Below, in pieces: positions 5,712 to 28,910 of a stretch of 64,000 nucleotides of DNA. The stretch spans positions 184,785 through 248,784 of the forward strand of contig CAVQBA010000002.1 of NCBI GenBank assembly GCA_963710605.1, read 5' to 3'. The translations under genes and the position numbers were made by a program. This DNA comes from an uncultured cyanobacterium (lineage in GTDB: Bacteria; Cyanobacteriota; Cyanobacteriia; Cyanobacteriales; Cyanobacteriaceae). The notes under the pieces were generated by a model that saw only the letters and a list, made by a program, of their open reading frames with translations, was not told the origin of the DNA and did no database searches. The stretch's first letter is position 1. Every line of letters begins with the position of its first letter.

Positions 5712-6407
5712 ATGTCTGAAGTTGAAAAAATATTATTAGTAGATGACGAGCCCGGTATTCGTGAATCTGTGCAAGCATATCTTAGTTGTAATGAAAATTG
5801 GCAAGTAGAAGTAGCTGTTAATGTTGCTCAAGCATGGGAAAAGATACAAAAAGAAATACCTGATTTGATTGTGTCTGATATTATGATGCCTGAGGTTGAT
5901 GGCTTAGAATTTTTGGCTCAACTTAGAGCGGATACTCGTTATCAAAGTTTGCCTGTTGTTTTATTGACTGCTAAAGGGATGACAACCGATCGAATTGAAG
6001 GATATACCGCAGGATGTGATGCTTATTTACCCAAACCATTCGACCCAGACGAGTTAGAAGCGATCGTTAAAAATCTTCTTGACAGACAAAAAACATTACA
6101 AGACAGTCAAGACGGTAATACTCAACTAGACGAATTACTAAAAGATGTTAAAGATATTAAAGACAAATTAGAAAATAATAACACATTCACTAAAAGTCAA
6201 CCGACTGTAAAAATCGATTTGACTCCAAGAGAGCAAAGTGTGTTAGATTTAGTCGCTAAAGGATTAATGAATAAAGAAATCGCTAAGACATTAAATACTA
6301 GTATCCGTAATGTGGAAAAATACGTCAGCCGTCTGTTTAATAAAACAGGTACTAATAGTCGTACTGAGTTAGTCAGATTTGCCCTAAAACAAGGTTTGAC
6401 AGATTAA
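5712..6407 (+). CDS. NarL/LuxR-family response regulator (Ycf29/Rre1-like)
   Basis: Receiver domain (LLVDDEPG, SDIMMP, YLPKPF) plus LuxR HTH (LTPREQSVL...GLMNKEIA...NVEKYVSRLFNKTG). Confidence 0.9.
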   Translation: MSEVEKILLVDDEPGIRESVQAYLSCNENWQVEVAVNVAQAWEKIQKEIPDLIVSDIMMPEVDGLEFLAQLRADTRYQSLPVVLLTAKGMTTDRIEGYTAGCDAYLPKPFDPDELEAIVKNLLDRQKTLQDSQDGNTQLDELLKDVKDIKDKLENNNTFTKSQPTVKIDLTPREQSVLDLVAKGLMNKEIAKTLNTSIRNVEKYVSRLFNKTGTNSRTELVRFALKQGLTD

Positions 6408-6447
6408 AATCTTTAAATACCTATAAATGATACTTAATCGTGATCAA

Positions 6448-6475
6448 TGTTGGGTTTCGTTTTCTTTACCCAACT
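6448..6475. repeat. REP-like hairpin (GTTGGGTTTCG...CCCAAC family)
   Basis: GTTGGGT...ACCCAAC inverted repeat between convergent genes. Same family as 23787-23849. Confidence 0.55.
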
Positions 6476-6625
6476 GACTAGCAATAACAAATTTTTCCTG
6501 AAATCCACACTTTGAGGTAATTATTTTCGGTTTCTTATTTTCGCTTCTGTATAAATTTTCCCCGTTAAACCTTAGGAAGACGAATTAACTCAACAATTTT
6601 GCTGTAATTTCAAGTTGAATTAGAC

Positions 6626-7330
6626 TTATTCATCTACGATTTTACCATCAGAAAACAAAATAATTCGATTAGTTTGATCTCCTACTTCTTGTTCGTGAGT
6701 GACCAAAATAATTGTCATTTTTTCTTCTTGATTAAGTTGCCTAAAGATTGCCATTACCTCGAGAGTCGTTTGGGAATCTAACGCTCCTGTTGGTTCATCA
6801 GCTAATAAAATCAGGGGTTGGTTAACGATCGATCGTGCGATCGCAACCCGTTGTTGTTGTCCACCAGAAAGCTGATTCGGTTTATTACCCAAACGATTAC
6901 CCAAGCCAACTTTAGTCAAGGCAACTTCTGCTTTTTCTTTTCTTTCTCGATCTGATACCCCCGCATAAACCATCGGTAACATCGTGTTTTCTAAAGCTGA
7001 TAGTTGAGGTAAAAGATGAAACTGTTGAAAAACAAAACCAATTTGCCGATTACGAATCGAAGCTAGTTGGTTTGCGGATAAACTAGCAACATTTTTACCA
7101 TCTAAGTAATAACTACCCACAGTAGGACGATCGAGACAACCAAGTATATTCATCATCGTTGATTTTCCTGAGCCAGAAGAACCCATAATGGCACAATACT
7201 CGCCCGTATCGATCGCTAAATTTACTCCCGAAAGAGCATTAACCTGAATATCTCCACTACCATAAGTTTTATAAATATTATCAAGTTTAATCAAAGATTG
7301 TAAAGCTACAACAGAAGCATTCATCATCAA
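6626..7330 (-). CDS. ABC transporter ATP-binding protein (LolD/MacB-like)
   Basis: Walker [45 protein letters not shown]. Confidence 0.95.
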
Positions 7331-16346: not shown

Positions 16347-17045
16347 ATGGAAATTTTGATTGTTGAAGACGAAAAAGAAATTGCTCAATTGATTAATAGT
16401 TGTTTGAGCAGAGAAGGATGGAAATGTCATGTAGTTCACGATGGTTTATCTGCTTTAAGTACAGCAGAAACGATCGAGCCTGATTTAATCGTACTCGATT
16501 TGATGTTACCCGGTATTGATGGTTTGGAAGTTTGTAGCAGAATCCGTAACTCTGGGATGGTAAAAGATCCTTATATACTAATGTTAACCGCCAAAGGAGA
16601 AGAAATCGATCGAGTGATTGGTTTATCTACTGGTGCGGACGATTATTTAGTCAAACCATTTAGCCCACGAGAATTAGCCGCCAGAGTTAGAGCGTTACTC
16701 AGACGTAGTCTGCGTCACGAACAAACTGCTCAAATACATGAAAGCGAACATTTCTCGGTCAATTTAGACGAGCATACCGCCACTCGTAAGCTAAACAATA
16801 ACGAAACAGAGCAATTAGACTTAACGGCTTTAGAATTTAATCTATTATCTACTTTTGTGAGTTATCCAGGTAAGGTATGGAGTCGTACTCAATTAATCGA
16901 TAGTCTCTGGGGAGCAGATTTTTTTGGCGATGAGAGAGTGGTAGATACTCATATTCGTCGTTTGCGTAAAAAAATAGAACCAAATCCCGCTCAACCTTCT
17001 TTTGTTAAAACCGTGGTAGGAGTTGGTTATAAGTTTGAAGACTGA
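16347..17045 (+). CDS. OmpR-family response regulator
   Basis: ILIVEDE, LDLMLPG, GADDYLVKPFS, VVDTHIRRLRKKIE...VKTVVGVGYKF. Confidence 0.95.
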   Translation: MEILIVEDEKEIAQLINSCLSREGWKCHVVHDGLSALSTAETIEPDLIVLDLMLPGIDGLEVCSRIRNSGMVKDPYILMLTAKGEEIDRVIGLSTGADDYLVKPFSPRELAARVRALLRRSLRHEQTAQIHESEHFSVNLDEHTATRKLNNNETEQLDLTALEFNLLSTFVSYPGKVWSRTQLIDSLWGADFFGDERVVDTHIRRLRKKIEPNPAQPSFVKTVVGVGYKFED

Positions 17046-17095
17046 TCAAATACACAACGAACGATCAATCCCCGCTCATCCCCCTTTGTAAGTGG

Positions 17096-17260
17096 CAGGG
17101 CTGATTCATTCTCGTTAGCCGAAAATAGCTAGAAGCTATTATTACTATACGATCGATCGAGAGTGGTTACATTGTCTTTTTACTATTAGAAAAAAACGGC
17201 TAAATTTACTGGTATTTCTTAGTTGTATAAATCACAAAAATAAGACATGAAACAGCCCTG
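17096..17260. mobile_element. MITE with CAGGGCTG termini and 12-bp target-site duplication (IS4-like)
   Basis: TIRs CAGGGCTGATTCAT / ATGAAACAGCCCTG. CTTTGTAAGTGG flanks both sides (17084-17095, 17261-17272). Confidence 0.85.
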
Positions 17261-17350: not shown

Positions 17351-17683
17351 TTAAGAAAACATCCGAACTAAAATATCTGAAACTACTTGTAAATCTTTTG
17401 AGGAGAGAATACCTAATTTTTTTAGTAATCTATATTTGTCAATAGCCCGAATTTGATCTAAGGCAATACTACCTTGTCGTGATTGAAAAAAAATTGAAAC
17501 TCTGGTCGGATAATTTTTAATTCTACTCGTGAGCGGTGCAATAATGACGGTTTTGAGTAAGCGATTAGTTTCATTAGGAGAGACGATAACACAAGGACGA
17601 GTTTTTTTTATTTCTGAACCAATTGTTGGCTCTAAATTAACTAACCATACTTCTCCTGTCTTAGGATAAGCTACCAAACCCAT
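17351..17683 (-). CDS. PemK/MazF-family toxin
   Basis: GEVWLVNLEPTIGSEIKKTRPCVIVS, IIAPLTS, LDQIRAIDK. Confidence 0.93.
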   Translation of the reverse strand: MGLVAYPKTGEVWLVNLEPTIGSEIKKTRPCVIVSPNETNRLLKTVIIAPLTSRIKNYPTRVSIFFQSRQGSIALDQIRAIDKYRLLKKLGILSSKDLQVVSDILVRMFS

Positions 17684-17913
17684 TCCTCCTCATCCCAACT
17701 ATTTTCTACGCAATTTTCTATTAATATTTGCTCATCAACTCCTGCTGTCATAATTGCTTCTGCCCATCCCTGACGAGGATTCTGATTAGAAACCAGCAAA
17801 CAATTGTCTTTAACTTCTAGTTTGACTATTTCCTTGAATTGACATTGTTCGATAATACTTTTAGGAATAATGATTCCTTGAGAATTACCTATTTTGGTTA
17901 TTTTTGTTTCCAT
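17671..17913 (-). CDS. AbrB/MazE-family antitoxin
   Basis: METKITKIGNSQGIIIPK...PRQGW...WDEEEWVW, overlapping the toxin start. Start reassigned to the ATG at 17913. Confidence 0.92.
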   Translation of the reverse strand: METKITKIGNSQGIIIPKSIIEQCQFKEIVKLEVKDNCLLVSNQNPRQGWAEAIMTAGVDEQILIENCVENSWDEEEWVW

Positions 17914-18441: not shown

Positions 18442-19074
18442 TTATTTAGCTTGAGATTTTTTACGCTTCATTAAGCTACCCAAACCAAAAGCAACAGTTG
18501 TACCCAATATAGTTACAGGCTCGGGTATGGGTTCGGCACTAGAACGTTCCCATTCTCCTATCAATGTTGCCCCTGCCACATCTTCTTGAGAATCTGCGGG
18601 AAAGTATAAGTCTCCGCTGGTGGGGCCAACTAACATATCTGCATAATCATCAGCCGGCATAGTCCAAGTACCTTGCCCTGTAAAAGCTTGTACGCCATCG
18701 GTAAAATCTATCGTACTGTCAGATGAGAAGCTGAAGATATTCAAGCCTAAGTCATTACCCGAGCCCCCTCGAAAGAGAACTGGAGCGTTATCGGGGGGAT
18801 TGAGAAAGTTTGTTAAATCTCCCGATACCAGACTTTCGTTTAAACTACCACCCACAGATGAATAAAAACCATCTAAGTAAACTCCTGTAAAATCACCTCC
18901 ACTTACCGTTGCGGAAGAAGCACCATCGGTTGAAGTAATTGTCACTTGATTGACGACAGAAAGATCGACTTGAAGTAGTGTCGCCGCATTAACTTGAGAC
19001 GAGCAAATCATTCCCCCCCCTACAACGGCAAGGGTAATGGTATTTTTAAATAACAAATTTGTTACTTTATACAT
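18442..19074 (-). CDS. PEP-CTERM sorting domain protein
   Basis: Signal-peptide-like N-terminus; C-terminal IPEP, hydrophobic helix and KRKK tail. Confidence 0.9.
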   Translation of the reverse strand: MYKVTNLLFKNTITLAVVGGGMICSSQVNAATLLQVDLSVVNQVTITSTDGASSATVSGGDFTGVYLDGFYSSVGGSLNESLVSGDLTNFLNPPDNAPVLFRGGSGNDLGLNIFSFSSDSTIDFTDGVQAFTGQGTWTMPADDYADMLVGPTSGDLYFPADSQEDVAGATLIGEWERSSAEPIPEPVTILGTTVAFGLGSLMKRKKSQAK

Positions 19075-19506
19075 AGTTTTTTCCTCTTAATAATTACTAA
19101 TCATTTATACACATCTTATCTTACATATACAAAATATTTAATTAAATTTTAATAAAGTTTCTGTAAAGTATAAATAAAGTTTTTATTAGTAATTATTAAC
19201 TATTTAAAAATAAAAAATACTGCTGATAAGTATGCTAGATAAAGCTTTAATGTATCAAATAATTAGTATTTATTGTTTTATTTAGATGTGTTTTTATTAA
19301 GTAATCATATTATTATTCATTATTTATTAGTACAAAAAGGTACAAATTAGTACAAAAAAGTTATTTTTGAAGTAAATAATTTAAAAGCTCGTTAATTATA
19401 TTTACTATTAAAAAAGCTATCTAATTATTTATTATTTTTATAAATATGTATGAGCTATAGCAAGTAACGGGTGAGGCGTGGACATTTTAGATCCCCCTAA
19501 CCACGG

Positions 19507-19635
19507 CAGGGCTGTTTCATTCTCGTTAGCCGTAAATAGCGATCGTGCTATTACTACAAAACGATCGATCGATTTGGTTACATTGTATTTTTACTATTAG
19601 GAAAAAACAGCTACATTTACTGCTATTTCTTAGTT
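19507..19635. mobile_element. Truncated second copy of the CAGGGCTG MITE
   Basis: Aligns by eye with 17096-17224; no right TIR. Confidence 0.8.
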
Positions 19636-19885
19636 CTAAAAATGACAAAACAGAGCAATTATATTTAACGGCTTTAGAATTTAACCTCTTATTTACCTTT
19701 GTTAGTTATCCAGGTAAGGTATGGAGTCGTACTCAATCGATAGTCTTTGGGAAGCAGATTTTTTTGGCGATGAGAGAGTGGTAGATACTCATATTCGTGG
19801 TTTACGAAAAAAGATTGAACCAAATCCCGCTCAACCTTCTTTTGTTAAAACTGTTGTTGGGGTTGGTTATAAGTTTGAAGACTAA
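19636..19885 (+). pseudogene. Duplicated, decayed 3' fragment of the OmpR response regulator gene
   Basis: Highly similar to 16791-17045 (LTALEFNLL...VGVGYKFED*), with a 4-bp deletion near 19736. Confidence 0.88.
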
Positions 19886-20018
19886 ACCTTTTGTTTAAAT
19901 AGAATAATTTATCTTCATAATTTTGTTTATACTTCACATTTTATTTCACACTAACCACTACAATATAAATATAAATAAACAAATATAAACATCTAAATAC
20001 TTGTAAAGGAAGTGAAAA

Positions 20019-20828
20019 GTGGCTCAAATAAATAATCCACTCATCGACTCATCACCAAAAGAAGTGCCATTAAAAAATGCACCTCTTATTCGTGTGATTG
20101 CCCAGATGCGCTTTCCTACTATTCTTTCCATTGAAAATAAAGGGTTTGTTAGCTCATTCCAAGAGGCAATTAGAGAAGATTACTCAATTTTACAACCAAA
20201 AAAAACTCAGGATTTTATTTTAGGAGAAGAAGGATTGATACTACCATCAGATTCTAAAATTATCTGGCGTTTTATGGACAAAATTGACTCGTGGCATTGG
20301 CGTGTCTCACTTGCATCTAATTTCTTAGCTTTAGAAACGACTAATTATTCTAGTCGTGATGATTTTATTGAACGTTGGCAAAAAGTGATGCAATCTTTGA
20401 AAGATAATATCAAACCAAAAACAATCGAACGTTTTGGACTTCGATATATCGATCGACTGACGGGAAAAGATTGCCAAGATGTTTCTTCTTTAGTTAAACC
20501 AGAAATTGCGGGAATTATTAACACTCAATTACGAGATAACATTCATCAAGTCATCAATCAATCTTTATTTATTATTCCCAAGACGAAAAAGCAAATTACA
20601 GCTAGATGGGGACTTTTATCTGAAGGAAATACTTATGATGCTAATGTTATTCAACCTATTTCTGAGCCGAGCTGGATTTTGGATTTAGATATGTCTGTAT
20701 CTAATCATCAAAATTTTCTTGTTGAGGATGTAGTAAAACAAACGGATGAGTTTTCTCAAAGACTATATACTTTTTTTCGATGGATGGTAGAAGATGAGTT
20801 TTTAATTCGTTTTGGAGGTGAATTATGA
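20019..20828 (+). CDS. TIGR04255-family protein (sporadically distributed)
   Basis: LKNAPLIRVIAQMRFP, LETTNYSSRDDF, RFGLRYIDR, WILDLD, FFRWMV motifs. Confidence 0.85.
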   Translation: MAQINNPLIDSSPKEVPLKNAPLIRVIAQMRFPTILSIENKGFVSSFQEAIREDYSILQPKKTQDFILGEEGLILPSDSKIIWRFMDKIDSWHWRVSLASNFLALETTNYSSRDDFIERWQKVMQSLKDNIKPKTIERFGLRYIDRLTGKDCQDVSSLVKPEIAGIINTQLRDNIHQVINQSLFIIPKTKKQITARWGLLSEGNTYDANVIQPISEPSWILDLDMSVSNHQNFLVEDVVKQTDEFSQRLYTFFRWMVEDEFLIRFGGEL

Positions 20829-21460
20829 ATTTAGTGCTAGAAGAAAGAAAAGACTATTCTGAAAATCAATCGTCTAATTCAAAAATATTTTTATTAAATG
20901 ACATTACTACTGCTTCTAAACAAAATCCTCAATCTAATTTAATCACAGCCTTAGAAACGACTACTAGTGGTGTTATTTTACCATCCACAGAAACTACCAG
21001 AAAGTCAGTTCATGAATTAAGAAAGCTGACAGGTTTAACTTGGGAACAAATTGCCAAACTGTTTAATGTCTCACGCCGAACTATTCATTTTTGGGGTAGT
21101 GGCAAACGACTCAACAGTGCTAATGAAGAACAATTAAATTTACTGTTAGAAACTATAAAATATATAAATAGAGGTAGTGCCAGTCAAAATCGTCATTTAT
21201 TATTACAAGACAGTAATAATGGAAGACGTTATTTAAACTTGTTAATTACAGGTGAATATGACACGGTAAAAAAAGAACTGGGAGAAGGAAAAAACGCACC
21301 CAATAAAGTTAAATCAGGTTCTTTGTCCGAAGAAGCTCGTGCTATGCGTAAACCCCCTAGCCCAGAAACTCTTGTAGATGCTTTACAAGAACCAATTCAT
21401 CATACCAGTGGACGTTCTCGCCCTGCTAAATCTGTAAGGAGTCGTAAACAGAGTAAGTAG
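20825..21460 (+). CDS. XRE-type HTH protein with low-complexity termini
   Basis: ELRKLTGLTWEQIAKLFNVSRRTIHFWGSG. ATGA overlap with the upstream stop. Confidence 0.8.
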   Translation: MNLVLEERKDYSENQSSNSKIFLLNDITTASKQNPQSNLITALETTTSGVILPSTETTRKSVHELRKLTGLTWEQIAKLFNVSRRTIHFWGSGKRLNSANEEQLNLLLETIKYINRGSASQNRHLLLQDSNNGRRYLNLLITGEYDTVKKELGEGKNAPNKVKSGSLSEEARAMRKPPSPETLVDALQEPIHHTSGRSRPAKSVRSRKQSK

Positions 21461-22300
21461 TGGAAAATAAACGTAATATTTTTATTAAAGAAGTAGATCG
21501 AGTTCTCCAAAATTGGACTCAAGGTGATTACGTATTGGGAGAACATTGGTTTGTTTATCGCTACAATATCGATCAACCTTTAACTGAGACTTCAGAAGAT
21601 ACTGCCGAACAAAAGATAGATCTTGCTGAAGAAGAAGTTAAGGGTTTTGTTGTCGTAACGCAAACTTGTGATATTGTTCGATCGTGTAAGTCTCGTCCAT
21701 TTGTCGAAGTTGTTCCTTTAGTTGAGGTTGATGAACAAAAATTATTAGAGATTAAAAAGGCTAGAAGACCCCATTATGCTTATATTCCCAGTACTGAAAA
21801 AGATAGTTTGGTAGCCGATCTGAGATCGTGTTATGACAGTAGAAAAACCAGTTGTGGCTCAATGGAAACGTCAACAAGGCTGTACAAACGATCGAGAAAT
21901 TAGAGCATTCGCACAAGCATTAGCAAGAAAAAAGATGAGGTTTGCTTTTCCTGATGACTTTAATTATTTTGTCAGTAAACTTCAAAAGCGACTAAAAGAA
22001 AAACATGACAAGTTGAGTAATGAAGGTGAGGCTTTACGAGGGTTAGATGAAATTAGAGTCAAAGCTTCACCAGATTGGAATGCCTCTAAAGTAGAACTGA
22101 TGTTTTGGTTTATACGTGATGAAGGGCAATTAGATTTTCAAGGAACGACATGGAATGAATTGTTAGATAAGTGGTTAAGATTAATTCCTGAATCCGATCG
22201 TTTTTATCAAGTTGATGGTGTAGTTATTACCTTAGAAGATATGACAGCAAAAGAATATGTTCAAAGCGATCGTTTAGACTTAGATCATTTATCATCTTAA
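21460..22300 (+). CDS. Hypothetical protein with PemK/MazF-like N-terminal domain, split by a +1 frameshift near 21822
   Basis: 841 nt (3n+1). Removing one base gives ...VADL-DRV-MTVEK..., a single 279-aa protein. Motifs WxQGD, VVVTQTCDI, VEVVPL. Confidence 0.7.
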
Positions 22301-22436
22301 ACACATACTTTTTTCCTTCTTTTCAATCGTTCATCCTTTTATCTCAATTAGACAACCATAACATTACAGATAAAAATCAAAACGATGGGCTTATGAGTAA
22401 CGAAAGTTTACCCATATGCCCCGATCGTTTCATCCA

Positions 22437-22811
22437 TTAAGGATTTTGTCTTAATCCTAAAGAATTACCGTCTAAATCTTTAAAAAAGGCTAGTTTAACC
22501 CCTTCTCCTGCCTCTTGAATTTCGCCTACAGAAACTCCTTTATCGATCAACGCTTGACGAGCAGTTTTGATATCATCAACCACAAAAGTAGTTACCGCAC
22601 CACCAGTGCCGACTCTTTCAGGATTGACGTATAATCCGATCGAAGCATTGTCTATATCTGGAATAGCTAATTGTGCCCAAGTTTTGGTGGGGAATAAATC
22701 TAACTTTTTAAAACCTAATTTCTCTTCATACCAATTGATACTGGCAGTTAAATCAGAAACATCTACTTTTAATGTTAATGCGTATTCGCCAATTATCGAC
22801 TGTAAACTCAT
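22437..22811 (-). CDS. VOC/glyoxalase family protein
   Basis: VSDLTASINWYEEKLGF, FVVDDI, AFFKDLDGNSLGL. Confidence 0.9.
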   Translation of the reverse strand: MSLQSIIGEYALTLKVDVSDLTASINWYEEKLGFKKLDLFPTKTWAQLAIPDIDNASIGLYVNPERVGTGGAVTTFVVDDIKTARQALIDKGVSVGEIQEAGEGVKLAFFKDLDGNSLGLRQNP

Positions 22812-23100: not shown

Positions 23101-23421
23101 TTATTCGTAATGAAAACGACAGGTCAAAAAATCAATTTGATGTTGAGTGACTCGATATATCAAACGATGCTCTAAATCGATTCTTCTTGACCAAATATCA
23201 CTGTCTAAATACTTTAATGGTTCGGGTTTGCCAATACCTTGAAAAGGATTTTTTATCACCTCTGTCACTAAATCAAGTATCTTGGCGGCTTTTTTATCGT
23301 CATATTTGAACCACCATTTTAAGTCTTTTTTAAATTGACTGCTAAAACCCGGTATTTGAGAAAAACTTGGCTGTATTTCTCCTTGCTCGTCAGATTTACG
23401 GGGTTTTTTCTTTTTAGTCAA
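23101..23421 (-). CDS. yoeB: Txe/YoeB-family toxin
   Basis: PFQGIGKPEPLKY...WSRRIDLEHRLIY...CRFHY. Confidence 0.93.
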   Translation of the reverse strand: MTKKKKPRKSDEQGEIQPSFSQIPGFSSQFKKDLKWWFKYDDKKAAKILDLVTEVIKNPFQGIGKPEPLKYLDSDIWSRRIDLEHRLIYRVTQHQIDFLTCRFHYE

Positions 23422-23698
23422 TGCCTAATTCTCCTTTCAAATCCTCTACCGATTGTGGTTGAATTTTTCCTGAAATAGACTCTTCTATTGCCCCAAACAG
23501 ATGACGGGCATTACTAGGCGATCGCAATAAATAGACTGTTTCTACCAAACTGCGTAATTCTGATTCGGCAATTAAAGCTACATTTTCACCATCACGACGA
23601 TTAATAAGGAAGACTTCTTTGTCTTGGGCTACTTTTTCTAGTAATTGAAACAGACTTTTTCTTGCTTCTGTGGGTGATGTTATTTCATAACTAAACAT
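23414..23698 (-). CDS. yefM: Phd/YefM-family antitoxin
   Basis: SPTEARKSLFQLLEKV...ETVYLLRSPSNARHL; overlaps the toxin gene. Confidence 0.92.
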   Translation of the reverse strand: MFSYEITSPTEARKSLFQLLEKVAQDKEVFLINRRDGENVALIAESELRSLVETVYLLRSPSNARHLFGAIEESISGKIQPQSVEDLKGELGID

Positions 23699-23849: not shown

Positions 23850-24006
23850 TACTAACTATCTCTCTCAATATTTATGTACTATTATACAATTAATAATTAA
23901 TTATTAACAATTACCTCTCTTTGAAAAGAAGAGGATTGACAAAGGGTGCAAAAATGTTTCTTTATTATCCCCAGTTAAGGGCAAGCAGATACTCCAAAAT
24001 TTTTCC

Positions 24007-24179
24007 GTAAAAAGTAATCTAACAATCCCACTAGATATTTACGTACTAGTAAAAAGTAATTTAACTATCTCACCAGATATTTATGTACCAGTAAAAAGTA
24101 ATCTAACTATCTCACTAGATATTTACGTACTAGTAAAAAGTAATCTAACTATCTCACTAGATATTTATGTACTAGTAAA
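24007..24179. repeat. 42-bp tandem repeat, four copies
   Basis: GTAAAAAGTAATCTAACTATCTCACTAGATATTTA[CT]GTACTA units start at 24007, 24049, 24091 and 24133. Confidence 0.95.
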
Positions 24180-24293
24180 GTTGTGTCAATTTAATAACTG
24201 TAACTATTATTGACGACGATCGATTTGAGTTGCTTTAACATTGAATGATAATGACCAATCTCATTAATTAATTACTTTATGAGTTCATCGTAG

Positions 24294-27200
24294 TTGCTTA
24301 TGTCACCATCGCTAAACGATCGTTATTTATCTTTCAAACTTACTTCAAAAGGTTATACTGCTGAACTATTAGCCTCTCTCAATCGCTCTATAGAAAGAGG
24401 ATTAATTGATGAGCAGAGTATTTATGTTTACCTCAATAGTAAAGATGTCTCTTCTGGGCAGACAATTAACTTTTTTAACCTCAACACCAAAGTAACTATT
24501 GAAAAATTGTTAGCAGGTTTAACTCAATGGCAAGAATTAGGTATTTTAGATAACGCTCAAATTAATTTAGAAATACAGACAAAAGCAAATCATCCTTTTT
24601 TATTACAGAGTTTAGACGAATGGCTTCAACTCGGATGTATTGATGAATCTAAAGTTAAGCAACTGTGTCAAAAAAATCTTACCTCTATCCTTCCTAATGT
24701 TAAAGTTTCTCCTTCACCAAAATCTGTAGCTAAACCGAAAAAAGAAGTAACAGCAGTTGCGAAAGTTAAAACTCCTAGCCGATTTCAACAGATATTACAG
24801 TCATTGAAAGCCGAATTGAGCGTGATTTGGTTGTTATCGTTGGGTGTCTTTATGATCGTTATTTCTTCAGGAGTTATCGCCGCTAGTCTTTGGGATGAAT
24901 TTCCAAGGGCTGGACAATATGGGGTGTTATGGCTTTATACTTTACTTTTTTGGGTTAGTAGTTTTTGGCTAGGAAAAAAACCTAATTTACAATTAACAAC
25001 GATCGCATTACAATTAATTACTTTATTATTAGTACCCATGAATTTCCTAGCGATGGATAGTTTGGGTTTAGGGCAAAATCCTCTAGATTGGGCGATCGTA
25101 ATTTTAGCTACTTTATCTTTATCATTTGTCACTGTTAATTTATTTCGCCAAATAGGTATTAGTGAAAAATATCCCAAAATTTATTTAGGATTGAGTTACT
25201 TGCATTGGGGATGGGCAATGAATTGGTATCCTATCTGGGCAATTTATTTAGGAGTTTTAGCTATAGCCATAATCATCATTCCTCCTCCTTTTCTTCAAAA
25301 CAAAATATCTTCAACTAAGATAGACAAAACTAAGACATTATTACCATTTAATCTTCATGGTACGATCGTTACCTATGCTTTAGTAATTTTATTATTTAGG
25401 GCAATATTCATCGCAGGAGTAGAAATAACTCAGTTAGGTTTAGCTATCGGTGTTTGTGGTTGGTTACTTACTCACACCAAAAAAAGTTATTTTCCTTGGT
25501 GGCAATCAGTCGGAGTTGTTTTACTTTTACTTGGTTGGTTAGTCTCAGTTACAACTGTGCCTTGGCAAAGTTTAGGCGTTAGTTGTTTGGGTATGATATA
25601 CCTAAGAAAAAGATTATTACAATCGTGGTCAAAACGCAATCTTTGCTTATTACTAGCGATCGGTTTACAATCATTATGGTTACTATGGCGATTAATTCCT
25701 GAAACTATTAGCCAACAATTAATTGTTTGGGCAACAACCTTAACTGCTTCTGTCGATACACCAGAAGTATTATTAAGTCTGGCACTATTTCCTTATATCC
25801 TTGTTATTCTTTTTACTAGCGAATGGTTAGTTAAAAAAAATCAATCTAAACTAGCTATTTTTAACGATCGAATCGCCTTTTGGTTTGGCATAGTTTTAAC
25901 CTTATTTAGTTTAGCCAATCCTGCTTTAAGAACAATAAATTTAGCTTTATCTACTGTTACCCTCGTTACTGTTATTCAACGAAAACTTACCTCAACTCCT
26001 GAGTCTTTAAAACAATCTCACCCTGCTGTTTCTCAGACTTTAGCTACTATTACTCATATTAGTGGATTGATAACTTTAGTCTTTGCGATTGATTGGATAG
26101 CACCTCAATTAAGTTTTGGTGGTTGGGGAATTGTATTTTTATTTTTAACCATTATTGAATTAATCTTTAGTGTTGTTATCCCCGTTACATCGATTGATTT
26201 ACTGCGTCTGTTAAGTCAAAATGCTTGGTATATAGGATTATTTTTAGCAGGGCTTTCTTTTCTCTTTTTTGAAGTAAACCAACAAGTAGTGTTAGAAACT
26301 CAGACAATTTCGATTGATCGATCTTCAATTAATTTAGAATGGGGATTAATTTGGTGTTTGATACCAATTACTTTTACTACCATTGCTTATAAGTATCCTC
26401 TTCGTCGTTTGATTTCAGCTCAGTTAAGTATCATCACATTACTCTCATGGCAGTTGTTAACCTTAACTGAATTATTCAGTTACTTCCTTGGTAGAGAAAT
26501 TACACTTAATATTGCAGTATATTCGGCTAGTTTAGGTATCGCTACAATAGTTGCTCTAATTAACACTAACAAAATACAAGAATTAGCATTCGCTGTTATT
26601 ACTCTAGGTTTTGGTTTAAGTTGGCTTACGTTACATTTATGGGCAGGAATTTTTGGTTGGGGATTGCAATTTATTGGTAGTTGGTTATTAGCAGGGGCGA
26701 TCGTTTCTACTACTTTCTGGTTATCTCGTCATCGTTTAAAAAAAGTTAATTCTTTATGGGCAGATATTTATAGTCAAGCCTTCAATGGTTGGGCAATATC
26801 TATTGTTTCTATTACTGGTTTAGCAATCTTGTTTTATAGTTTTGTCACCAATTTTGAGCCTCTTGATCTATCAACTTCGATTGCAACGGCTATACTTATC
26901 TTAGCTACAGCTTATAATAGCAGTCAAAAACCTCGCTCTTCTTTTGATATTTGGTTAGGTATTGCTACACTTTTAACCGTTCAAATTCCCTTATTTACCC
27001 TCGCAGGTTATCGCTTAATTAGTTTGGGAGTAGCAACGGCTTTAATGGTTGTTTATGTCAATTATTTACCTCGATTGGCGACAACAGTTATCAATGTGGG
27101 GATAGCGATAATTTTTGTCATGACTTGCCTTGGAGAATTAGAATTATTAGCTAGATTTGATAGTTGGTTATTAGCTTTTGCCTCTATTATTACGATTCTG

Positions 27201-28910
27201 TGGTTATTAAGAAGTTGGTTTAAATCTTTTGATGGTAATAATAAGATTACTAATATTTATAGTAAAGCAACAAATAGATGGGCGATCGTTTTATTTAGTT
27301 TACAACTGTTACTTCTAACTGTTCATTCAATTGCCATTCATTGGGATATAACTTCCGCAACTACTTTATTAATTCTTGCTTCGGTGATAACTTTACTAGC
27401 AATTAGTTATCGTGTCTGGCAAACACCAACTAACAGGGGTATTTATGTTATCGGTTGGTGCTTAGAAATTGTCACTATTGAAGTTTTGGATTTATTTGGT
27501 TACTCAATTATTGCTTTAAGTATTGCTAATATTATTTTAGGATTAATAACTCAAATATTTGGTAACTGGTGGTATAAACGTCATGGTAACTCACAAGTAT
27601 TTGCTAGTTGGAATATTATTCCTTTGTTTTATGCGGCTTTAGGTGGTGTTTTACGCTGGGGAATCTTCAATAATTGGACGGGTTTAACTTCTTTAGGGTT
27701 AGTCTTTATTCTGATTGGTGTTGGTTGTCGCTCACAAAAACTCAAACCTTTACTTTATCTCGGTATTGCTGGTATTAGTTTATCTGCTTACGAATTACTG
27801 TTACCTCGACTGACTGGTTTATCCATCGGCGATCGATTTTTAGCAATATCTGCTTTAACTACTACTTTTGTCTATAGCTATCGTGTCTTGACTCCTTGGT
27901 TAAGTCAATATTGGGGTTTAACTTCCTCCGAATTAAAATTAATCGCTTCTTTACATTGGGGTTTAGCAAGTTGTCTGTTATTACTAGGATTCGTGTTTCC
28001 TGTGGAAGTTAATCAGTTTGTTGGTTTAGGTGCGGGTGTCTTCCTTACTCGTTATGCTATTTATCAGGGGCGTAATAATCCTAACCAAAAAAATGGCGAA
28101 ACATGGGTTTACATGGGGATTTTTCTGGCAATTACGATCGTTTTATACATCACTGACTTAATTGATAGCACTTTCTTTTATCGCTATTTTGCACCTTGGT
28201 GTGGAATTTTAGTATCTTTTGGGGCAGTTGGTTTATATCTTCTTCCTTGGCAGTCATGGGGTTGGCAAAAAAAACCTTGGCAAAGAGTCGCCCTTATTTT
28301 ACCTATAATTGCTGTTGTCGGTTATGGAGAGGTTGTTAACCAAATCAGTTTAATCGCTGTAGCTGTCTTTTATGGTTGGCAGGGATGGATAACTAAACAA
28401 ACTCGCACTTATCTGCTTACTCTTGTCTTGATTGATTGGGTAATTCTTAGTTGGTTAGAAATCTTTGATTTGACCACACCATTTGTTTACAATGCTTTAC
28501 TCGGACTTTCTATTATTGCTTTTTCTTGGATTGAGCCAAATTGTCAAGGGAAAAGTAACAAATCTTTACGTAATTATATTCGTTTATTAGGGATGGGAAT
28601 TATTTGTGGTACATCACTTTTATTTCATTATCAGACAGGAGTTATTCCTGCTGTAGTTGGTTTAGTGGCTATTTTTGCAGGATTAGGATTAAGAGTAAGG
28701 GCTTTTCTTTATATTGGTACGTTAACTTTTGCTTTCAATGCTTTTTATCAATTAGTTATTTTAATCTTCGATTATCCTTTGCTTAAATGGGTGGTAGGTT
28801 TAATTATAGGTTTGACTTTACTTTCGATCGCAGGTAGTTTTGAAACCCGTAAATCTCAATTATCTTCTTTATTCCAAAATTGGTTAGCAAAACTGCAAGA
28901 ATGGGAGTAG
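24294..28910 (+). CDS. Very large polytopic membrane protein (DUF2157-like)
   Basis: 1538 aa, mostly hydrophobic helices. ELSVIWLLSLGVFMIVISSG motif and GLGLRVRAFLYIGT...AGSFETRK C-terminus. Confidence 0.8.
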   Translation: MLMSPSLNDRYLSFKLTSKGYTAELLASLNRSIERGLIDEQSIYVYLNSKDVSSGQTINFFNLNTKVTIEKLLAGLTQWQELGILDNAQINLEIQTKANHPFLLQSLDEWLQLGCIDESKVKQLCQKNLTSILPNVKVSPSPKSVAKPKKEVTAVAKVKTPSRFQQILQSLKAELSVIWLLSLGVFMIVISSGVIAASLWDEFPRAGQYGVLWLYTLLFWVSSFWLGKKPNLQLTTIALQLITLLLVPMNFLAMDSLGLGQNPLDWAIVILATLSLSFVTVNLFRQIGISEKYPKIYLGLSYLHWGWAMNWYPIWAIYLGVLAIAIIIIPPPFLQNKISSTKIDKTKTLLPFNLHGTIVTYALVILLFRAIFIAGVEITQLGLAIGVCGWLLTHTKKSYFPWWQSVGVVLLLLGWLVSVTTVPWQSLGVSCLGMIYLRKRLLQSWSKRNLCLLLAIGLQSLWLLWRLIPETISQQLIVWATTLTASVDTPEVLLSLALFPYILVILFTSEWLVKKNQSKLAIFNDRIAFWFGIVLTLFSLANPALRTINLALSTVTLVTVIQRKLTSTPESLKQSHPAVSQTLATITHISGLITLVFAIDWIAPQLSFGGWGIVFLFLTIIELIFSVVIPVTSIDLLRLLSQNAWYIGLFLAGLSFLFFEVNQQVVLETQTISIDRSSINLEWGLIWCLIPITFTTIAYKYPLRRLISAQLSIITLLSWQLLTLTELFSYFLGREITLNIAVYSASLGIATIVALINTNKIQELAFAVITLGFGLSWLTLHLWAGIFGWGLQFIGSWLLAGAIVSTTFWLSRHRLKKVNSLWADIYSQAFNGWAISIVSITGLAILFYSFVTNFEPLDLSTSIATAILILATAYNSSQKPRSSFDIWLGIATLLTVQIPLFTLAGYRLISLGVATALMVVYVNYLPRLATTVINVGIAIIFVMTCLGELELLARFDSWLLAFASIITILWLLRSWFKSFDGNNKITNIYSKATNRWAIVLFSLQLLLLTVHSIAIHWDITSATTLLILASVITLLAISYRVWQTPTNRGIYVIGWCLEIVTIEVLDLFGYSIIALSIANIILGLITQIFGNWWYKRHGNSQVFASWNIIPLFYAALGGVLRWGIFNNWTGLTSLGLVFILIGVGCRSQKLKPLLYLGIAGISLSAYELLLPRLTGLSIGDRFLAISALTTTFVYSYRVLTPWLSQYWGLTSSELKLIASLHWGLASCLLLLGFVFPVEVNQFVGLGAGVFLTRYAIYQGRNNPNQKNGETWVYMGIFLAITIVLYITDLIDSTFFYRYFAPWCGILVSFGAVGLYLLPWQSWGWQKKPWQRVALILPIIAVVGYGEVVNQISLIAVAVFYGWQGWITKQTRTYLLTLVLIDWVILSWLEIFDLTTPFVYNALLGLSIIAFSWIEPNCQGKSNKSLRNYIRLLGMGIICGTSLLFHYQTGVIPAVVGLVAIFAGLGLRVRAFLYIGTLTFAFNAFYQLVILIFDYPLLKWVVGLIIGLTLLSIAGSFETRKSQLSSLFQNWLAKLQEWE

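Follow-up and report, generated by a model that had tools for sequence, protein, structure and literature searches.

Toxin-antitoxin (TA) systems that carry a third gene include the toxin-antitoxin-chaperone (TAC) systems, exemplified by HigB1-HigA1-SecB(TA) of Mycobacterium tuberculosis, and three-component systems with a separate regulator, exemplified by omega-epsilon-zeta and PaaR2-PaaA2-ParE2. In TAC systems a SecB-like chaperone is attached to HigBA, HicAB or MqsRA pairs and binds a chaperone addiction (ChAD) extension of the antitoxin (PMC5105189), and the TAC system CmdTAC reportedly acts against phages (PMC11618068). In their passages on three-component systems, Makarova et al. 2009 (PMC2701414) predict other TA systems of this kind (COG2856-Xre-toxin) and not a TIGR04255 cassette. 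Here we describe three co-directional genes, which we have designated g1, g2 and g3, on a 64,000-nucleotide (nt) stretch of DNA from an uncultured cyanobacterium (contig CAVQBA010000002.1), referred to in its entirety as the window. The three genes encode a TIGR04255 family protein, a helix-turn-helix (HTH) protein and a protein whose reading frame is broken, respectively (Table 1), and the locus probably represents a toxin-antitoxin-accessory cassette of three genes that has spread horizontally and is decaying here. An initial annotation of the window had proposed a tripartite TA or TA-chaperone system at this position; the tripartite idea was strengthened because TIGR04255 genes elsewhere precede a small gene followed by a PemK, PIN/VapC or HEPN gene.

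Comparison with described systems

The cassette resembles TAC systems in being a three-gene operon in which one accessory family is joined to TA pairs of different families. It differs from them in that the accessory protein is TIGR04255, which has another predicted fold and no SecB family match and is encoded first, not last, and in that the putative toxins are MazF-fold, PemK, PIN and HEPN proteins. Additionally, no ChAD-like element was identified among the middle-gene families, and g2 has conserved N- and C-terminal extensions.

The likeness to MazEF, PemIK, Kid-Kis and CcdAB lies in the predicted fold of the g3 N-terminal domain and in the overlapping upstream gene in the antitoxin position, and a sister cassette (locus L128) bears a true PF02452 toxin at the third position. 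In contrast to these systems, g3 has no PF02452 sequence match, has its own motifs (QGD and TQxCD, with K129 and R160) and carries an extra C-terminal domain of ~115 amino acids (aa). The cassette also has an additional gene, the third, that is obligatory, and the protein in the antitoxin role would be the HTH protein of 211 aa and not one of AbrB/MazE type. With respect to type II TA pairs, the adjacency and overlap of g2 and g3 were conserved; in the complex prediction given below, g1 was scored. The cassette is also like Panacea (PanA), for which PMC8832971 describes one constant family with many unrelated toxin families, but TIGR04255 comes on top of a variable middle gene that is antitoxin-like, and there is no sequence or family relation between TIGR04255 and PanA. 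GajC of 'type II Gabija', a MazF-like defence protein, was considered and set aside as part of a different system (PMC13069673).

The operon matched no described system, in that no PADLOC model and no literature description of it were found. The searched literature, excluding supplements and subscription journals, contained no mention of TIGR04255 and no description of such a cassette. What would be new is a tripartite TA with a non-SecB accessory together with a MazF-fold clade, the copy in the window being a degraded example.

TIGR04255 as the constant head of cassettes with exchangeable partners

The downstream partners of TIGR04255 were surveyed at 60 sampled loci from two phyla, 30 of the loci being cyanobacterial. 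The family was present in 36 of 301 genomes sampled from the phylum to which the window belongs and in 32 of 401 from that of Thiocapsa imhoffii (genome G325, which contains locus L069). Two tightly spaced co-directional open reading frames (ORFs) lay downstream of TIGR04255 at 41 of the 60 loci, as called by an automatic chaining rule. Relatives of both g2 and g3 were present at only 6 of the 30 cyanobacterial loci, that of the window included; the other cyanobacterial loci still had two tightly packed co-directional genes downstream, which belonged to other families. TIGR04255 is the constant head of the cassette, and the second and third genes are exchangeable across genomes.

The third gene was repeatedly of a classical toxin type (PemK, PIN/VapC or HEPN) or a MazF-fold relative of g3. 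It was a canonical PemK_toxin at L128 (E 1.1e-18; 67.9 bits, cut-off 23.1), a PIN/VapC protein at L112 (PIN, 43.3 bits, cut-off 23.6), a HEPN protein at L107 (33.6 bits, cut-off 22) and a g3-type protein at L130 and L140. At five further g3-type loci the third gene extended beyond the 1.5-kb flank. At 16 loci the third gene came from a family of 174–232-aa proteins with the motifs RQGD and (T/S)Q/NxCD. Alignment of a profile of ten cyanobacterial members of this short family with the N-terminal domain of g3 gave an hhalign probability of 96.9% (E 1.5e-10, 167 columns); the short proteins lack the g3 C-terminal domain, and the match ended at approximately residue 190. The middle genes, which were placed between the accessory and the toxin gene, were mutually unrelated and often small, and several encoded acidic tails. 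Because the first gene is constant, the middle gene exchangeable and the last gene repeatedly encodes a toxin domain, the arrangement has the signature of a modular TA system with an accessory component.

One alternative, which we regard as improbable, is that TIGR04255 itself neutralises the toxin and g2 is only a transcriptional regulator, as in three-component TA systems with a separate regulator. The precedent for it is Panacea, in which one antitoxin domain neutralises many unrelated toxins (PMC8832971), and a three-chain prediction of the complex also bears on it. This prediction was run on g3, g2 and g1 of locus L007 with alignments of 26 rows, the chain scored being g1. The score of g1 was 0.49, compared to 0.17 for the best control, in which g3 was swapped for an unrelated protein; contact agreement between the runs was at least 53% and the predicted local distance difference test (pLDDT) value of the partner was at least 85. 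In the calibration, 116 of 157 solved complexes and 2 of 215 mismatched pairs attained the mark; those that did so with scores of 0.60 or less comprised only 18 of the 157 solved complexes and both of the mismatches that passed. The prediction is compatible with g1 touching the toxin, to which it lends weak support, and TIGR04255 as the neutraliser stays alive because the g1 score is compatible with such contact; the fall in score on replacement of g3 hints, again as weak support, that g1 leans on g3. Set against this are the weakness of that same score and the difficulty that a direct inhibitor would face if one constant protein had to act on unrelated toxin folds (PIN, HEPN and MazF). Moreover, the middle proteins of L128, L112 and L089 are small, have no HTH match and have acidic C-termini like those of classical antitoxins. 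The preferred reading remains that of a middle-gene antitoxin with TIGR04255 as the accessory component.

More tentatively, TIGR04255 could mark a large undescribed class of three-component TA or abortive-infection systems with a sensor or controller of new fold. This class might then comprise at least four toxin superfamilies (canonical PemK, the QGD/QxCD MazF-fold clade, PIN/VapC and HEPN), and it might also take in several unknown toxin or antitoxin families and horizontal transfer across many phyla.

Other recurrent genes were seen at the surveyed loci. An unannotated third-gene family of seven members (93–166 aa; L103, L121, L134, L137, L138, L148 and L149) had a recurring pattern in which L-x-R came early, S-V/L-x-R midway and N-x-x-H-A-x-I late, and it was paired with a nine-member middle-gene family. 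A cyanobacterial third-gene family of two members (L084 and L104) was possibly related to the seven-member family. The seven-member family, the nine-member middle family and the two-member relative are candidate new toxin or antitoxin families. At L094, L097, L099, L110 and L125 a recurrent pair was found, consisting of a middle protein of ~180 aa and a third protein of ~170 aa, neither of which had a family match above cut-off. At L088, L091, L098 and L102 a QGD/QxCD MazF-like gene lay 300–420 nt beyond TIGR04255, and there was no intervening same-strand ORF of at least 40 aa; the gap could hold a tiny or non-canonical middle gene or an RNA.

Conservation and spread of the g1-g2-g3 unit

One genome per species was scanned, which yielded 302 pattern matches; 248 of these were confirmed as related to g3, and the best 80 were retained together with their flanks. 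The three genes were found in the same order at 72 of these 80 loci, which agreed with the earlier expectation that they would co-occur elsewhere. Six loci were cut by a contig end within the operon (L054, L056, L062, L064, L074 and L079); L034 had no g1, and L042 had neither g1 nor g2. At the 72 trio loci, g1 and g2 overlapped by 4 nt in 69 cases, and in 71 cases the gap between g2 and g3 lay within −35 to +6 nt. Chance is far from explaining this arrangement, and g1-g2-g3 is a conserved, translationally coupled unit. As the 4-nt overlap and the close g2-g3 spacing were kept at 69 and 71 of the 72 loci, respectively, this coupling is conserved and not an accident of the window.

By the titles of their records, the loci, at 50–65% identity, came from Cyanobacteria, Deinococcota, Myxococcota, Anaerolinea, Planctomycetota, Acidobacteriota, Actinomycetota and several proteobacterial groups, yet g3 was present in only 1 of 40 related genomes, which together argue for horizontal spread of the trio. 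A survey of the flanks at 25 of the 80 loci took in the two nearest ORFs per side, 98 of 162 flanking ORFs in total; the flanks varied between loci and contained no fourth conserved gene. A TA, restriction-modification, recombinase or conjugation gene was found within two genes of the trio at 11 of the 25 loci, which, as a raw count, is in line with the proposed TA nature of the cassette. Broken relatives were also present. In Calothrix sp. HK-06 (L001) the g3 gene (6001–6837) has a stop at codon 206, which replaces a tryptophan that is invariant in close homologues, and at L073 g1 has a stop at codon 190. Broken copies of g3, in the window and at L001, represent decay typical of toxin genes.

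The g3 protein and its predicted MazF-type fold

A total of 1338 g3 homologues were found at E ≤ 0.001 among 2290 candidates. Among these, the 120 matches listed were 60–72% identical and 264–311 aa long, and all of those with a name were called 'hypothetical protein'. The family comprised 1246 cluster representatives (50% identity) at E ≤ 0.001, of which 360 were at E ≤ 1e-30. No Pfam family matched g3, either as pieces (E up to 1) or as the read-through (E up to 10), and there was no NCBIfam match and no meaningful PHROGs match. The best match of the g3 profile to PDB sequences was at chance level (E 0.72). In an alignment of 67 near-full-length members, chosen from 270 listed proteins, the residues Q21, D23, G62, C70, K129 and R160 were invariant.

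The intact g3 homologue P0002 was modelled with AlphaFold2 (AF2) using the 67-sequence alignment (pLDDT 95.7; pTM 0.87). A Foldseek search of the PDB with this model returned MazF in all of its top rows, the best being 4mzt_A (E 5.2e-4, TMt 0.61), and only two matches were at E ≤ 0.001. In VIA, which is independent of Foldseek, the nine best rows were all MazF, CcdB or Kid with Z-scores of 10.3–7.8. The first of these, 8zws_A (Z 10.3), aligned over 102 of 105 residues with a root-mean-square deviation of 2.8, and the others included 4mzm_A (Z 9.5), the CcdB chain 1vub_A (Z 8.6) and the Kid chain 1m1f_A (Z 7.9). The VIA alignments placed model residues ~15–162 against almost the entire target chain. 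On these models, the N-terminal domain of g3 has the predicted MazF/CcdB/Kid fold, as the initial annotation had suggested from motifs, and the modelled fold confirmed g3 as a member of the CcdB/MazF structural superfamily by fold and not of PF02452 by sequence.

The additional C-terminal domain, which had also been noted initially, was present in the model at residues ~162–279. Its best VIA match was middling only (8hhj_A, Z 7.3). Matches to minimal nucleotidyltransferases (MNT) were found at Z 6.4 (8xeh_E) and Z 6.0 (2rff_A and 1no5_B), which is an uninformative range. The likeness of the cassette to HEPN-MNT systems consists of these middling matches (Z 6.0–6.4, in the same uninformative range), and g3 differs from MNT proteins in having no NTP_transf_2 or Polbeta match; the nucleotidyltransferase motif was not seen in an alignment of 14 homologues.

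The g1 and g2 proteins

The g1 protein matched NCBIfam TIGR04255 with E 2e-44 and 152.3 bits (cut-off 30) over profile positions 2–252 of 252, and it belongs to this family. No Pfam family, and hence no SecB family, matched g1 at E up to 1. PHROGs gave nothing meaningful for g1, searches of the ESM Atlas gave only unnamed or 'TIGR04255' clusters, and a comparison of the g1 family profile with PDB chains by sequence gave 0 hits. An AF2 model made from 29 sequences (pLDDT 91.8) showed a pseudo-duplicated alpha/beta protein, with a beta-sheet plus a long helix, in a topology like that of the TATA-binding protein (TBP). Foldseek ranked TBPs first, with poor TM-scores, and in the Foldseek viral library an unnamed 202-aa viral protein came first (E 1.1e-7), followed by TBP-like proteins. 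VIA gave the McsB kinase domain as its best match (Z 7.8) and phosphagen kinases, S-adenosylmethionine decarboxylase (AdoMetDC) and TBP at Z 6–7. The function of g1 cannot be read from these model-based fold matches. The initial annotation had suggested a chaperone or sensor for g1, with a SecB-like fold as one possibility; no SecB-like match was seen, as Pfam searches at E up to 1 gave none and the best folds were TBP-like or phosphagen-kinase-like at Z ≤ 7.8.

The McsB match raises the possibility, to which we assign very little likelihood, that TIGR04255 is enzymatic and switches the system by modification of the antitoxin or the toxin, for example as an ATP-dependent modifier like phosphagen kinases or McsB. 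The match to the McsB kinase domain (8wtc_C) extended over 182 residues, arginine and taurocyamine kinases were found at Z 6.2–6.9, the TMq of McsB in Foldseek (6fh1_B, 0.35) was the highest in its list, and TIGR04255 has many invariant arginines and a D-x-D (D222 and D224). However, these Z values are typical of models without a true match, Foldseek places TBP-like proteins first, neither a nucleotide-binding motif nor a corresponding family match turned up, and the family profile finds no PDB chain by sequence. An accessory role for TIGR04255 alongside a TA pair is preferred to an enzymatic one.

The HTH of g2, as described in the initial annotation, is real but weak. The HTH_3 match (20.6 bits, cut-off 23) and the HTH_23 match (20.5 bits, cut-off 24.6) were below threshold, both with E ~4e-4, and Xre-like-HTH gave 16.2 bits (cut-off 25.8). 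The homologous middle genes at L130 and L144 matched HTH_3 above the cut-off of 23 (24.2 and 23.6 bits). In an alignment of 28 homologues the N-terminus was variable; it was followed by a strongly conserved HTH-like core at ~57–100, a helical central region and a C-terminal tail that was also conserved. The consensus of the core was ELRRLSGLTWEQLAxLFxVSRRSLHFWASGKPL and that of the tail was PxxPExLVDALQDRIH...R; residues W73, Q75, R84, R85, H88, W90, G93, P180 and R199 were invariant. The motif TSAxGAM of the family is not in the g2 of the window.

Proposed roles and the evidence against them

In the proposed mechanism g3 would be the toxin, most likely an endoribonuclease, with a CcdB-like non-enzymatic mode as the alternative. 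The g2 protein would be both the antitoxin of g3 and the repressor of the operon, its HTH acting on DNA and its conserved C-terminal tail on the toxin. TIGR04255 would be a generic third component that controls the pair, possibly in the role of a stabiliser or in that of a sensor timing the release of the antitoxin; the logic would be analogous to that of the SecB-like chaperone in TAC systems, with an unrelated fold. The 4-nt overlaps would hold the three proteins at a fixed proportion.

If this is correct, TIGR04255, which is named only 'TIGR04255 family protein' in thousands of genomes, would gain a testable role as the constant third component of modular TA cassettes. The toxin repertoire would gain a MazF-fold clade that is invisible to sequence models, and the cassette would be a second accessory-addicted TA design, independent of the SecB-type TAC. 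It would also be a candidate for a new sensing principle, as TAC systems turned out to sense phage infection.

Several observations weigh against this reading. Most second and third genes at the TIGR04255 loci had no family match, the HEPN match of the third gene at L113 was below threshold (17.1 bits, cut-off 22), and no convincing shared motif was found in the first 60 residues of 41 middle proteins. The g3 sequence did not match PF02452, and its comparison with the MazF of the window gave an hhalign probability of 0.3%, that is, no detectable sequence similarity. The motifs WxQGD, VVVTQTCDI, VEVVPL and VADLDRVMTVEK are present in g3, as the initial annotation stated, and most of their residues are invariant in 14 close homologues; their claimed equivalence to the MazF motifs did not hold in sequence, and because there is no similarity to the MazF of the window, a motif-by-motif equivalence is a matter of fold alone. 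Catalysis by MazF involves an Arg located around beta1-beta2 and a Thr or Ser that follows the conserved Pro. The invariant residues of the g3 family are different ones (Q21, D23, C70, K129 and R160), and they may represent a different chemistry or a binding site. For g1, fold matches of Z ≤ 7.8 are in the range typical of models without a true match, and a SecB-like or chaperone fold was absent from the listed fold matches, such absence being no proof. With regard to phage defence, PADLOC-DB v2.0.0 had no family for g1 or the g3 pieces at E up to 1; g2 matched only mad1 (E 0.011 over 17 residues), and these results lend no direct support to a role in phage defence. Finally, all three proteins are 50–70% identical between phyla, which is unusually high for a TA system.

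This last degree of identity, seen in all three proteins, would suit a cassette that is not a TA system at all. It could instead be a conserved regulatory or nucleic-acid-processing module, in which a MazF/CcdB-fold protein with a non-toxic role is regulated by g2 and TIGR04255 is a partner that binds nucleic acid or a ligand, and the extra domain and family-specific invariant residues of g3, its lack of a PemK sequence match, and the TBP-like topology and many invariant arginines of TIGR04255 are all consistent with this. We consider such a module unlikely. The distribution is sporadic (g3 in 1 of 40 genomes; TIGR04255 in 36 of 301 and 32 of 401), the insertion sites vary, broken copies exist, and bona fide PemK, PIN and HEPN genes occupy the third position in sister cassettes. 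A toxin-antitoxin-accessory cassette is still the favoured explanation.

The copy in the window

The features of the locus are listed in Table 1. In the raw sequence the g1/g2 junction is ATGA at 20825–20828, where the start of g2 overlaps the stop of g1 by 4 nt, and the g2/g3 junction is TAGTG at 21458–21462, which combines the stop TAG of g2 with the start GTG of g3. The ORFs and both junctions of the three co-oriented genes were where the initial annotation had placed them.

Table 1. Coordinates of the genes and features of the g1-g2-g3 locus (positions within the window).
Feature	Position	Strand	Description
Gene 1 (g1), TIGR04255 family protein	20019–20828	+	ORF, 269 aa, GTG start
Gene 2 (g2), HTH protein	20825–21460	+	ORF, 211 aa; putative antitoxin/repressor
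Gene 3 (g3), pseudogene of a 279-aa protein	21460–22300	+	GTG start; putative toxin, from the modelled fold
g3 ORF pieces, overlapping	21460–21903 and 21833–22300	+	Broken by the frameshift
g3 N-terminal domain, predicted MazF/CcdB/Kid fold	21460–21955	+	Residues 1 to ~165; motifs W-x-Q-G-D and T-Q-T-C-D-I
g3 frameshift site	21820–21826	+	CTGAGAT, one surplus base near 21822/23
g3 C-terminal alpha/beta domain, ~115 aa	21956–22297	+	Residues ~162/166–279; secondary structure of the model

The frame-1 reading of g3 terminates at a stop at 21901–21903, and reading through the break with an X gave 279 residues. In the alignment, 14 of 14 intact g3 homologues contained ...LVADL/DRVMTVEK... across the break site (marked by the slash). 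As all 14 read this sequence uninterrupted, CTGAGAT in the window has one base too many. The repair of g3 to 279 aa proposed initially was correct, the read-through and the 14 intact homologues being in agreement. The frameshifted g3 is the sole copy in the genome, and the frameshift could still be an assembly error. A +1 frameshift interrupts the putative toxin gene, so that the cassette of the window is probably no longer toxic; g1 and g2 are still intact. In this genome the cassette would be a pseudogenised remnant in a TA-rich patch. A scan of 19700–22500 for promoters and terminators gave ten promoter-like sites and one terminator-like site, which was not above shuffled sequence.

Genomic surroundings

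The surroundings of the cassette are a small TA cluster, in which two type II pairs flank it. A PemK_toxin (E 4.4e-29) with a MazE_antitoxin (23.4 bits, cut-off 24.7) is encoded at 17351–17913 on the minus strand, and a YoeB_toxin (E 3.9e-29) with PhdYeFM at 23101–23698, also on the minus strand; these matches bear out the two canonical TA pairs described initially.

Upstream of the cassette, the last ~250 nt of an OmpR-type response-regulator gene (16347–17045) are duplicated with 90–93% identity. The two copies of the 3′-end of this gene are at 16794–17043 and 19638–19883, and the second leaves an ORF (19721–19885) that encodes a 54-aa Trans_reg_C fragment. A further element of ~150 nt is duplicated at 17094–17239 and 19505–19650; the first copy is downstream of the regulator gene and the second abuts the duplicated regulator fragment. 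In place of the several MITEs described initially, only these two duplications were seen. Between the copies lie the MazEF pair and the gene of a 210-aa protein, and this stretch has the look of an insertion or a rearrangement. The 210-aa protein (18442–19074, minus strand) is secreted-looking, with no Pfam match at E ≤ 0.001 and with a C-terminal hydrophobic segment followed by basic residues, which we take to resemble a PEP-CTERM sorting signal. Downstream of the cassette, a 42-nt unit is repeated in tandem, in four to five copies, at 23852–24216, directly upstream of an ORF (24294–28910) that encodes a multi-pass membrane protein of 1538 aa.

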